Below are positions 12,011 to 62,160 of a stretch of DNA of 64,000 nt, piece after piece (within the stretch, counting starts at the first letter, position 1; each line of letters begins with the position of its first letter). The notes below the pieces were generated by a model. That model had not been told where the DNA came from and searched no databases. It saw only the letters and a program-made list of their open reading frames with translations. Made by a program: the position numbers and the translations under genes. Source of the stretch: Eledone cirrhosa (Eukaryota). Where the stretch lies: the NCBI GenBank assembly GCA_964016885.1, contig OZ024758.1, positions 13,020,001 through 13,084,000 on the forward strand, given 5' to 3'.

Positions 12011-12082
12011 TATACTTTATTATATATATTTCAAAGGTACTGTGTTGTTTTTTTCAGTACGTCCTCATCAGACAAATTATAT
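12011..12082 (-). ncRNA. Type I hammerhead ribozyme (family C element, about 11965-12160)
   Basis: UUUGU-CUGAUGA-GGA C GUACUG(12 nt)CAGUAC C UUU-GAAA-UAUAUA-U-A/AUAAA. Confidence 0.75.
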
Positions 12083-14654
12083 GATTTGATATATGATATA
12101 CCGCTAGTGATTTATTTCATCAAATCTCAACGTTTTTATACCACAAATAATATGATAAACTTCATATATATATATATATATATATATATATATATACACA
12201 CACACACACACACACACACACACACACATATATATATATATATATATATAATATATATATATATATATATGAAGTCAGGCAGACTGAATGGTAGGTATGG
12301 AGCTAGATAGATAGTAGCTGCTTGACCACTAACCTGCTTGTCAACACTGAGAGAAGGCGAGGTGTGGAAGAAGATATGAAATTACCATTTCCCAAACAAA
12401 TATACCACAAAGTGTTAGTAACTTAACACTTGAGTTTTATTATAAAGATATTTACATATATACATACATACACATATGTGTGTGAATATATATATATTGG
12501 GAGAGAGAGAGAGAGAGAGAGAGAGAGAGAGAGAGGGGGGGAGTAAACAGAGAGGAAGAGTGAGATAAAGAGAGATAGACTGTGAATTGGTGAGCTAATG
12601 AGTGTGTGAAAGTGTGTATGTAAATGTGTGTTAATGTGTAAGGGTGTAACTATACGGCTGTGTATGTATGTGTGTGAACCAGTCTCTATATGTGTTTACT
12701 TGTTGATGTGTGTATGAACGTGTCTGTGTGTGTTTATTTGCAAAGTGTGCTTGTGTGAAAGTGTCTGTGTGTGTGTGTGATTATTTGCTGATGTGTTTGT
12801 GAGAGTGTTTATTTGCTCATGTGTGTGGGTCTGTGTGTGTTTATTTGCTGATGTGTGTCAGTGTGTGTGTTTATTAGCTGAGTATGTGTGAGAGTGTCTG
12901 TGTATGTGTGAGAGTGTCTGTGTATGTGTGAGAGTGTCTATGTATTTGTGTATGTCTCTGTGTGTCTATGTATGTTTATGTATGTTTGTGTATGTCTATG
13001 TATGCCTGTGTTTGTCTGTGCGTGTCTGTGTATGTTTCTGCATGTGTAGGTCTATGCGTGTGTCTATGTATATATGTGTATGTATTTGCGTAGGTCTGTC
13101 TGTGCGTGTCTGTGTATGTTTCTGTGTGTGTATGTCTGCGTGTGTCTATATATATATATATATCTGTGTATGTATTTGTGTAGGCCTGTCTGTGCGTGTC
13201 TGTGTATGTTTCTGTGTGTGTATGTCTGCGTGTGTCTATATATATATATATATATATGTGTATGTATTTGTGTAGGCCTGTCTGTGCGTGTCTGTGTATG
13301 TTTATGTATGTGTTTGGCTCTGTGTGTCTATGTATGTGTGCGTATGTCTATGTATGTTTGTGTCTGTCAATGCGTGTGTCTGTGTATGTTTCTGTATGTG
13401 TTTGGCTTTGATTAAAATAGTTGTTTGTGCAGTTTATGTTTTTTCCTCTTTCTCCTTTGTACAGAAATGTGCTAATTTTAATCAAGTTACAACCACTGAA
13501 AACAAAAACAACAATTAATAACAAATAATGTTAATAATAATAATAATAATAATAATAATAATAATAATAATAATAATAATAATAATAATGATGATGATGA
13601 TGATGATAATTCCCTTTCATTTTATTTATTTCTGTTATTTCGTGTAATTCACACATACACACGTACATACGCATACATACAAAGCATGCATGTACATATA
13701 AATATATATATATAAATATATATATACATATATAAATACATACATATATATATATATATATATATATATATATATATATATATATATATATATATATATA
13801 TATATATATATATATATATGCATATATATATATAAATACATATATATATATACACACACACATATATATATATATATATATATATATATATATATAATAT
13901 ATATATATATATATATATATATATATATATATATATATATATATATGCATATATACATATATATATGTATGTGTGTGTGTATAATGTTTGTTTTTGTGGA
14001 GAGTTGGAGAGAGAGAGGGGGGTGGGGATCGAATGAGTAATTTAAAATGTTCGATAATTTCGCCAAATAAGCGAATAAAAAGCTAACTTAATAATCATCG
14101 AAATGAATGTTCGATAGATCAATTAAAACCGGGCAGCAATTTGATATAAAACTATGTTATAAACATAGCTATATAAGATACATATATATATATATATATA
14201 CATACGGTATGATATGATATAAAACTATCTGTTGCGAATAAAAACATAGGATTAAAAGAAGAACAAAATGGCGGAACCGTTAACTATGGCCGACACTGAA
14301 GTAAAATTTTACACAAATCCAATCAGTCATCGATCTCTTCTGCTGATTTTTACCAAAATTATTCTTTCAATTGCTTTATTATTGTTATTGTTATTGGTAA
14401 TTAATTGTTGTCATTGCTCTTGTTATTGTTATTGTAATTATTGTTGTTATTGCTTTTGTTATTATTGTTGTTGCTGTTTTTGTTGTTATTGTTGTTATTA
14501 TTGTTGTTGTTATTGCTGTTGTTGCTGTGGCTATTGTTATTGTTATTGTAATTATTGTTAATGTTGTTGTTGTTTATTTTATCCTGTTAATTTTGTTTAA
14601 AATTTTCTGGGATCTTTTAGTTTCTGCTTTGTTTTGTTTTTTTTCTTGAATGAG

Positions 14655-14970
14655 GTTTTAATATATTTTATTTTATTTTATTTATTTTGTTTTATTTTAA
14701 TTTATTTTATTTTAGTTTGCTTTATTTTATTTTATTTTAATTTATTTTATTTTATTCTTATTTGTTTTATTTTATTTTTATTTATTTTATTTTATTTTAT
14801 TTTAATTTGTTTTATTTTATTTTAATTTGTTTTATTTTATTTTAATTTATTATATTTTATTTTATTTTGTTTTATTTTAATTTATTTTATTTTATTTTAT
14901 TTTAATTTATTTTATTTTATTTTAATTTGTTTTATTTTATTTTAATTTATTTTATTTTATCTTAATTTAT
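14655..14970. repeat. (TTTTA)n pentanucleotide array
   Basis: Seen directly; another at 53155-53277. Confidence 0.9.
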
Positions 14971-16609
14971 TTTCTTTTTAAAGTGTTTTATTTACACTTT
15001 GCCTCATTTTTATTATTATTATTATTTTTATAACGGCAATATTATTATTATTATTATTGCTGTTGTTGTTGTTATTGTTGTTATTATTGGTGTTGTTGTT
15101 ATTGTTATTGTTATAATTATTATTAGCAACATCATCACATTGTTATTAATTCTAAAAAATCCTTTGCTATTGCTTTCACTGCTGTTGCTATTATTGTTGT
15201 TGTTGTTGTTGTTGTTGTTGTTGTTGTTGTTGTTGTTGTTGTTGTTGTTGTTGTTGTTGTTGTTGTTGTTAAAATTTAACGAAAAAAAATATTTCATAGA
15301 AATAAATTAAATTAAATAAATCAAATCAAACGGAAAAAAAGAAAATGTATATATATATATATATATGTGTGTGTGTGTGTGTGTGTGTGTGTGTATGTGT
15401 GTATGTGTGTAAGTGTCTATGTGTGTGTATGTGTATGTGTGTATGTGTGTGTGTATATATATATATTTGTGTGTGTGTGCATGTGTATGTGTGAGTGTGT
15501 GTAAACATACTCATATCAACAATCCTTAAATGAATGATTAGCTGTTGAAATAATGTGTTTTGTTGTTGACGTTGTTGTTGTTGTTATTTTTAGTGTTGTT
15601 TGTGTCATTGTGGTTGATATTGTCTGTTGTTTCATGTGAGTGTCTGTGTGTGTGTGTGTGTTTGTGTCTATATCTCTATGTATGTGTGTATTATATTTGT
15701 GAGTATACATATGTGTGTATTATATTTGTGAATATACATATATATATACATATATATATATACATATATATATATATATATATATACATACATATATACA
15801 TATATATATATATATATATATATGTATATGTATATATATATATATATATATACATACATATATACATATATATATACATATATATATATATGTATATGTA
15901 TATATATATATATATATATATATATATATATATATACATATTCATATACATATACATATATATATATATATATATATATACATATATATATATATATATA
16001 TACATATTCATATACATATATATATATATATATATATATATATATATATACATATATATATACATACATATATATATATGTATATATATATATATACATA
16101 TATATGTATACATATATATATATATATGTATATATACATTTATACATATATATATACATATATATATATGTATATGTATATATACATATATATATATGTA
16201 TATATATATATACATATACATATATATATATGTATATATATATGTATATATGTGTATATATATATATATGTATATATGTATATATGTATATATGTATATA
16301 TATGTATACATATATATACATATATATATATGTTTTACATCATTAAGTATTTTTATTCACAGGTTTACTTGTGAATAACAATCTACTGTAAAGTCTATAT
16401 GTTCAAATTGACAGCATCATCATCACCATTGTCATCATCACTATTACTATCATCATCATCATCATCATCATCATCATCATCATCATCATTAACATCATCA
16501 CTATCACTATCATCATCATCATCATCATCATCATTTTAACGAAATTCCTGTTAATATCTCATCGTCAACATTATTACAATTACCACCACTAACAAACCAT
16601 CAAACATTA

Positions 16610-61426: not shown

Positions 61427-61437
61427 TATATATATAT

Positions 61438-61768
61438 AATAAATCAGGAAAGAAGAGTGACACGGTTTGCTATACAAAAAAGGTTTTTAATCTCATTGCT
61501 GACAATTGTTTCTCTGAACTGGTAGGTCTAGAGATCGCTATCCGCTTATTTTCACGTTACTTGTATAGTAAACCGTGTCACTCTTCTTTCCTGATTTATT
61601 ATTACTCCAAGTGTTTACAACATAGGAATTACAGCGTACTTGCAACATCACTATGGAAACGCCTTGTTGAGTCAAACTTAGCCAAGCGTTGATATCATCC
61701 ACTACCCGGAATACCATAACTGGACTACACCTAAGTGGACTCCCTATAACAATAATTTGTTACCCCGT
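61438..61768 (+). mobile_element. Family G fold-back element in (TA)n, no clear hammerhead
   Basis: 40-bp inverted arms 61438-61478 and 61561-61601, then a unique tail; (TA)n flanks. Confidence 0.5.
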
Positions 61769-61967
61769 ATATATATATATATATATATATATATATATAT
61801 ATATATATATATATATATATATATATATATATATATATATATATATATATATATATATATTTGCACACATATAATCACTTAGACACGTATGTATATATGT
61901 ATAAATAGATAAATTATTGTTGTGTTAACATTATTTTGTTAACACACATATATATATATGTATATAT

Positions 61968-62160
61968 GTAGAAGTTATATTTAATTTGTTGGGATACAAC
62001 AAGCAATTCTTTAAGGGTATGTCAATATTTGTTTATAAAACTGATCTATATTATATTTTATCTGATGAAAGCGCACCATAATTTGCTTTGGTGTCCTTGA
62101 AATATGTATAATGAAATAAATATGGTTTTATAAATATAGTTTCCATTTGTTAATATATTG
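61968..62160 (+). mobile_element. Family C element with hammerhead (62054-62118), preceded by an inverted copy of its 3' terminus
   Basis: UAUUUUAU-CUGAUGA-AAG C GCACC(12 nt)GGUGU C CUU-GAAA-UAUGUA-U-A/AUGAAAUA; 61968-62004 is the reverse complement of the terminus at about 23727-23760. Confidence 0.72.

Follow-up and report, generated by a model that had tools for sequence, protein, structure and literature searches.

An unpaired cytosine conserved in stem II of hammerhead motifs from Hydra-clade Penelope-like retrotransposons of Eledone cirrhosa

Five hammerhead ribozyme motifs lie in a 64-kb stretch of the Eledone cirrhosa genome (contig OZ024758.1, positions 13,020,001 to 13,084,000; hereafter the window, numbered from its first nucleotide). 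A scan of both strands placed their cores, each named here by the start of its CUGANGA box, at 12071(-), 23571, 27254, 60631 and 62062. All five are type I hammerheads, and their positions, stem II strings, AUA triplets and loop III hexamers are as quoted in an original prediction made from the sequence. They share a cytosine at position 10.4, in the fourth pair of stem II, which is left unpaired by the C or U that it faces (Table 1). The mismatch is real and under selection, and it represents a clade-specific variant of the known hammerhead of Penelope-like elements (PLEs). The new part is one invariant base outside the catalytic core, the element type, the palindrome of stem-loop III, dimer cleavage and the AUA triplet being already known.

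The core (CUGANGA...GAAA...UH) is intact at four of the five loci; the exception, locus 60631, reads AAAA for GAAA, unlike the copies of its family elsewhere in the genome, which have G at position 12. Since G12 is the general base of hammerhead catalysis (PMC2553840), this lesion probably cripples locus 60631, which is likely a dead copy. Loci 23571 and 62062 have homologous flanks and fall into a single family cluster, so that the five loci of different sequence announced earlier amount to four lineages, designated A to D. At locus 23571, which sits in a truncated PLE end 98.6% identical to another copy (L019) over 278 nt, stem II has just two base pairs ahead of the mismatch, the place of the first pair reading U in the majority of genome-wide reads. 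At locus 27254, a (TA)n repeat follows about 38 nt past the predicted cut.

A covariance model was trained on 21 family representatives; as four of these are window loci, it is not independent of the window. It retrieved exactly the five loci, at 56-72 bits, and the next window match scored 17.6 bits. No hammerhead family was found by Rfam among the 150 of 371 window matches listed, nor in focused scans of loci 27254, 60631 and 62062, the output consisting of microsatellite look-alikes of miRNA families. Single-sequence folding predicted the hammerhead stems for loci 27254 and 62062 alone. As no endonuclease (EN) or reverse transcriptase (RT) match was found within the 64 kb, the five loci are short, solitary relics, probably without present function.

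Table 1. Hammerhead motifs in the window and the retrotransposon end that surrounds one of them
Feature	Positions	Strand	CUGANGA	C10.4	Facing base	Predicted cut	Remarks
Type I hammerhead, lineage D	12011..12081	-	12071	12061	C 12036	3' of A 12021	Loop III hexamer 12028-12023
Type I hammerhead, lineage A	23561..23630	+	23571	23581	C 23605	3' of A 23620	A·C opens stem II
5'-truncated PLE end around locus 23571 (approximate extent)	23480..23760	+					About 85-nt 3' extension precedes (TA)n
Type I hammerhead, lineage B	27244..27318	+	27254	27264	U 27293	3' of A 27308	Loop III octamer self-complementary
Type I hammerhead, lineage C	60621..60686	+	60631	60641	C 60661		G12>A at 60665
Type I hammerhead, lineage A	62052..62120	+	62062	62072	C 62095	3' of A 62110	Followed by (TA)n after about 50 nt

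The constancy of C10.4 is best seen at the scale of the 3.0-Gb genome. A pattern combining the core, a C at 10.4, a pyrimidine (Y) at 11.4 and an RYRY loop (R, purine) was matched 98,537 times, against five matches for a reversed control. Another 1,646 matches have C facing a purine and 4,590 have a base other than C at 10.4, so that 95.6% of the 104,773 matches carry the C. A G at 11.4 facing C or G accounts for 418 matches (0.4%), which are spread over many families and mostly occur as single copies; beyond these, the class with a purine partner consists of C·A, which recurs in at least two families. The partner of C10.4 is thus C, U or A, not a pyrimidine alone, and the rule at pair 4 is an unpaired C with a partner free among these three bases. 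Of the three base pairs and C/Y mismatch initially described, the fixed C stands, whereas the pyrimidine partner and, with the A·C opening of locus 23571, the three pairs do not hold throughout.

C10.4 varies about as little as the catalytic G12. Copies with a mutated G12 (G12>H; H, any base but G) number 3,432, a figure close to the non-C count, although each includes some unrelated matches and C10.4 often sits in a CpG; this agreement matches the post-insertion decay of an invariant position. When the descriptor was left free at 10.4 and 11.4, 131 copies were grouped into 22 clusters (40 source loci came from the non-C and C-purine searches). C is the majority base at 10.4 in 20 clusters and is unpaired in 19, while no cluster of several copies is dominated by U, A or G at this position, which argues that the identity of the base is kept rather than mere weakness of the pair. 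Selection on the unpaired C itself is therefore highly probable.

In contigs of four sequencing runs per stretch, for families B and A, no variant was listed at 10.4 or 11.4, coverage being thin in two coded organisms (B and C). In one of these runs (X4), ten places of L071:4760-4960 differed by A>G or T>C at 5-21%, against less than 1% in run X1, which resembles A-to-I editing; RNA editing in family B was considered and dropped, as it did not recur on family A. A metagenome pattern scan covering 8 of 64 parts gave 115 matches, one of which passed a loose pairing filter, and the 81 scored with the covariance model reached 27.6 bits at best. These matches are essentially chance, and no outside family member was found in the parts scanned.

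The structure around C10.4 was further supported by an alignment of the 21 representatives. A pairing filter was applied first and the rows were then chosen by hand. Four near-duplicates were left out, as was a C-G paired hammerhead of a different class; C-bearing members of their families took the place of three medoids, two of which had G at 10.4 and stemmed from the non-C search; and an intact family copy stands in for locus 60631. With stem III counted as intermolecular, 83.7% of the cells are paired, and both-side changes number 99, against 35.5 in shuffled and at most 23 in slid controls; the filter and the row choice inflate these covariation figures and the tree counts given below, which counts against them, but the genome counts are independent of both. 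Pairs 10.2 and 10.3 are paired in 21 of 21 rows, with changes on both sides, whereas pair 10.4 is paired in none, in agreement with the claim of compensatory stem II changes around the mismatch. Pair 10.1 is paired in 13 rows and non-paired in eight, and position 10.5 is a purine in all. RNAalifold recovered the same stems with a gap at 10.4. A register placing one more base after A9 was also considered, but rejected because covariation of pairs 10.2 and 10.3 is seen in the direct one and pairing falls to 27-52% in slid controls. On a tree built from non-stem columns, parsimony assigns no change to C10.4, about six to its partner (among C, U and A) and 2-8 to the other stem II columns. Stem I, which is long and without the canonical bulge, covaries in all six counted pairs and has no invariant base; loop II varies in both length and sequence.

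Almost certainly, the motifs sit at the 3' ends of Hydra-clade PLE copies truncated on the 5' side. Upstream of the motif, a copy of the lineage B family (L071) contains an 821-codon frame in which an RT (YRDD) is followed by a GIY-YIG endonuclease, and comparable frames of 775 and 847 codons occur in L079 and L344. In the L071 protein, DKT and R-x-R-W are present along with a CxCx5C linker, and a conserved E and N are surrounded by CxxC and CxH; CCHH is absent. According to section 11 of PMC8557442, DKT, RWK, CxCx5C, CxxC and CxH characterise the Hydra clade, although in L071 RW is followed by T or I, not K. The open reading frames (ORFs) also resemble published Hydra ORFs in a by-eye comparison with File S4 of the same paper. 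As Pfam returned no family for three ORF proteins, the assignment rests on these motifs and this comparison; a Neptune or Nematis assignment was rejected because the motifs fit Hydra. Twenty-five database homologs of the element protein, one of them from Argonauta, are 31-42% identical to it. These other homologs and the Argonauta protein served to root the trees, named Hydra sequences being compared by eye only.

The insertions themselves fit such elements. The motifs occur in inverted and tandem copies, and (TA)n follows the motif in 123 of 131 sampled copies, 30-70 nt past the cleavage site in 75 of them and farther in 45, mostly at 130-150 nt. Many copies are head-to-head inverted pairs in which one arm carries the 3' extension. 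Two classes of 3' end were observed among the 131 copies, 40-60 and 130-150 nt past the cut, corresponding to a tail of about 85-90 nt, while the 3' tail reported for PLEs measures 30-40 bp (PMC8557442). In L079 and L080, which like L071 belong to the lineage B family, same-strand hammerheads flank the ORF 3.9 and 3.3 kb apart; units thus span 3.3-3.9 kb, with a 3' untranslated region (UTR) of about 1.0-1.2 kb. A non-LTR (non-long terminal repeat) retrozyme, made of short non-coding tandem units, was also considered and rejected, since the families link to coding elements and the five window copies are dispersed; no tandem hammerhead array was found at loci 12071(-), 23571 and 27254 among the repeat matches listed (to 28.6 kb).

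In other genome copies, each of the four lineages is tied to a Hydra endonuclease located about 1.0-1.4 kb upstream. This link is provided by L235 for lineage A (with RT/EN sequences in L073-L076), by L334, L342, L343 and L346 for lineage C, and by L282, L284, L286, L289 and L291, of Hydra type, for lineage D. The endonucleases of A to D are 39-52% identical and the RTs of A, B and D 56-64%; the 3' UTRs of the lineages share no blastn match. In a full-ORF tree, A, B and C form one clade (94/96 support) apart from two sister lineages, X and Y. The mismatch thus has probably one origin in one clade, not five, the simplest history being a single opening of an ancestral C-G pair that has been kept since. 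A distinct subtype, as originally proposed, is upheld insofar as the C is kept across lineages with unalignable 3' UTRs; it is probably the inherited trait of one clade.

The sister lineages have their own stem II shapes. Lineage Y (L330, L331; G000:C15, C1002) has a single pyrimidine bulge after stem II pair 4; it is a young lineage whose tandem units measure about 5 kb; its open frames are long, and its endonucleases share 95-100% identity in at least 150 copies. In lineage X (L252-L281, L294, L295), pair 3 is C·A, the loop measures about 80 nt and stem III is palindromic; its core reads CCGAUGA in most copies and CUGAUGA in some, and was missed by the CUGANGA descriptors. In a third lineage, stem II is possibly a perfect helix of 7 bp, the link being uncertain owing to an insertion, and more distant Hydra lineages of the genome may be unsampled. 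For family K (L251), a link to a young ORF was rejected because this ORF carries its own, different hammerhead, and no protein link was found for K and the minor families (L210, L239, L244 and L247 types). The same unpaired C was observed in L239, L227, L247 and L061, whose stem II is long and may be branched; an AUC or GUC triplet occurs in three of these subfamilies.

Several observations weigh against a strict and general requirement for the unpaired C. Sister Hydra lineages of the same genome do transpose with other stem II shapes, which makes the unpaired C clade-specific rather than a general requirement. None of 25 published Hydra hammerheads (File S2 of PMC8557442, compared by eye) has C·H at pair 4, but 15 of them already have C at 10.4, paired with G, so that part of the constancy of this C may be ancestral. 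Lineage D lies outside the full-ORF tree, as no frame passed the filter, and the endonuclease tree is unresolved. Within stem II, pair 10.3 itself changed only about twice, and the avoidance of G by the partner rests on few family-level transversions. Lastly, six close inverted pairs among 100 non-C matches listed carry a non-C base in both arms and one inverted pair (L232) has C-G in both; such templates may have moved, unless conversion made the two arms alike.

The architecture of stem III is that of a dimer-type hammerhead. At all five loci, the predicted probability of a monomer stem III is 0.0, while the loop III octamers self-pair at -2.2 to -10.5 kcal/mol, which together fit the known double-hammerhead mode; in the 21-row alignment, 98.8% of the stem III cells are paired in the dimer register. 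The families thus combine the weak palindromic helix III and the second tandem copy of dimer-type PLE hammerheads, although the window copies are solitary. Even the neighbours 60631 and 62062 could not partner, since a dimer forms only between copies whose stem I arms match. Both the palindrome and cleavage as a dimer have already been reported for PLE hammerheads (PMC4209133; PMC6765202), a U10.1·U11.1 start and a palindromic stem III have been described (PMC3088659) and the AUA cleavage triplet occurs naturally (PMC1636495).

The motifs would likely act as conditional ribozymes. In tandem units, two copies may pair through their self-complementary loop III into a double hammerhead, whose formation is probably assisted by the element protein. 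Because inserted copies keep 40-60 nt (or 130-150 nt) past the cut, we infer that their templates were uncut at the 3' hammerhead, and the motif would be at once a regulated cutter and a marker of position close to where reverse transcription begins. Uncut 3' templates agree with an anole PLE, whose hammerhead cleaves only with the PLE protein, uncut RNA being the main substrate, and in which cleavage is dispensable for insertion in vitro (PMC11167929).

As for the unpaired C, its most likely role, to which we give an even chance, is to be specifically recognised as a base by the RT-endonuclease that the element itself encodes. The mismatch might instead be a brake, in which a weak stem II base keeps the 3' hammerhead uncut until reverse transcription without the base being read. 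Closing pair 10.4 stabilises the predicted fold by 1.8-6.7 kcal/mol across the five loci, pair 10.1 is often open too, inserted copies derive from uncut templates and sister lineages have other stem II distortions, all consistent with a brake. Yet any mismatch would then do, whereas no multi-copy cluster has settled on another base at 10.4, and the partner is free when the C is not; as only C is kept, protein recognition is favoured and a brake appears unlikely. A tertiary contact of the C within the RNA, with stem I or across the double hammerhead and in place of loop 1-loop 2 docking, would account for a base that is invariant and whose distance from the core is constant, at the point where stem II stops in canonical hammerheads, as well as for the constant purine at 10.5 and the long stem I devoid of a canonical bulge. 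Since stem I covaries throughout and offers no invariant base to receive the C, and loop II varies widely, protein recognition is again preferred, the tertiary contact retaining a minor share of the probability.

A frozen accident, or a constraint at the DNA level such as a promoter or endonuclease site in the pseudo-LTR, would require no RNA role at all. The probable single origin, the few independent lineages and the frequency of C at 10.4 in published Hydra hammerheads speak for such an explanation; however, C10.4 remained unchanged while neighbouring stem columns changed 2-8 times and the UTRs became unalignable, and no family has closed the pair, which makes this very improbable. Extending protein recognition, a protein-gated switch can be tentatively proposed, in which the RT-endonuclease would read the flipped-out C, hold the 3' ribozyme uncut, start reverse transcription 40-60 nt downstream and let the upstream copy cleave. 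If this rather speculative scheme were true, the role of PLE hammerheads would be testable by one point mutation, with about 100,000 natural copies and young full-length elements at hand.

PLE hammerheads cut poorly alone, and their cleavage proved dispensable for insertion in vitro (PMC4209133; PMC11167929). A base outside the core that is as constant as a catalytic one, across lineages whose proteins are about 40-55% identical, provides a precise means of telling catalysis from protein recognition, in a class of about 100,000 motifs that Rfam did not report where it was run. Unless the C turns out to be a protein switch, the advance is modest.

The window also contains hammerhead-like sequences of other kinds. 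Another high-copy family, with a very short stem II, head-to-head pairs and no C·H, is present at 3427+, 7534-, 7548+, 8709- and 8721+. Hammerhead-like cores of further repeat families occur at 41333+, 33601+, 31817- and 52660+, the first of which is canonical-looking, with an extra G ahead of a paired stem II.

The literature searched gave no account of C·H as a constant feature of the fourth pair in stem II, a point on which Lünse et al. 2017 and some supplements may bear. The closest known system is that of the Hydra-clade PLEs with a C-terminal endonuclease (Craig et al., 2021; PMC8557442), which include Hydra-1_Obim. As described there, they share with the present elements an RT followed by GIY-YIG, the motif set, the (TA)n target, inverted and tandem copies, a type I hammerhead near the 3' end and, often, a weak or U·U first stem II pair. 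In contrast, the published Hydra hammerheads have an AC...GU stem III and GUH triplets, whereas A-U/U-A and AUA (AUC in few families) are found here, in longer units and with a 3' extension of about 85-90 rather than 30-40 nt.

The minimal metazoan PLE hammerheads with a palindromic helix III (Cervera and de la Pena, 2014; PMC4209133) similarly combine a weak helix III, predicted dimers and a long helix II, and occur as dispersed singles and close opposite-strand pairs, with many covarying families per genome. They are reported to carry one more base after A9, ahead of a conserved G10.1-C11.1, while here 10.1-11.1 is variable and C10.4 fixed; likewise, the D. virilis hammerhead has a helix II bulge in place of a 1x1 mismatch. 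The Poseidon hammerhead of Anolis (Frangieh et al., 2024; PMC11167929) belongs to a different PLE clade but has in common the site near the start sites of reverse transcription, the optional 3' tail and the uncut template, protein assistance being shown there and inferred here. Finally, non-LTR retrozymes (Cervera and de la Pena, 2020; PMC7229834) also possess type I hammerheads with a weak helix III and a very high copy number, which reaches 126,247 in the axolotl; these are short non-coding tandem repeats, whereas the motifs of Eledone cirrhosa are the dispersed, truncated ends of coding elements.

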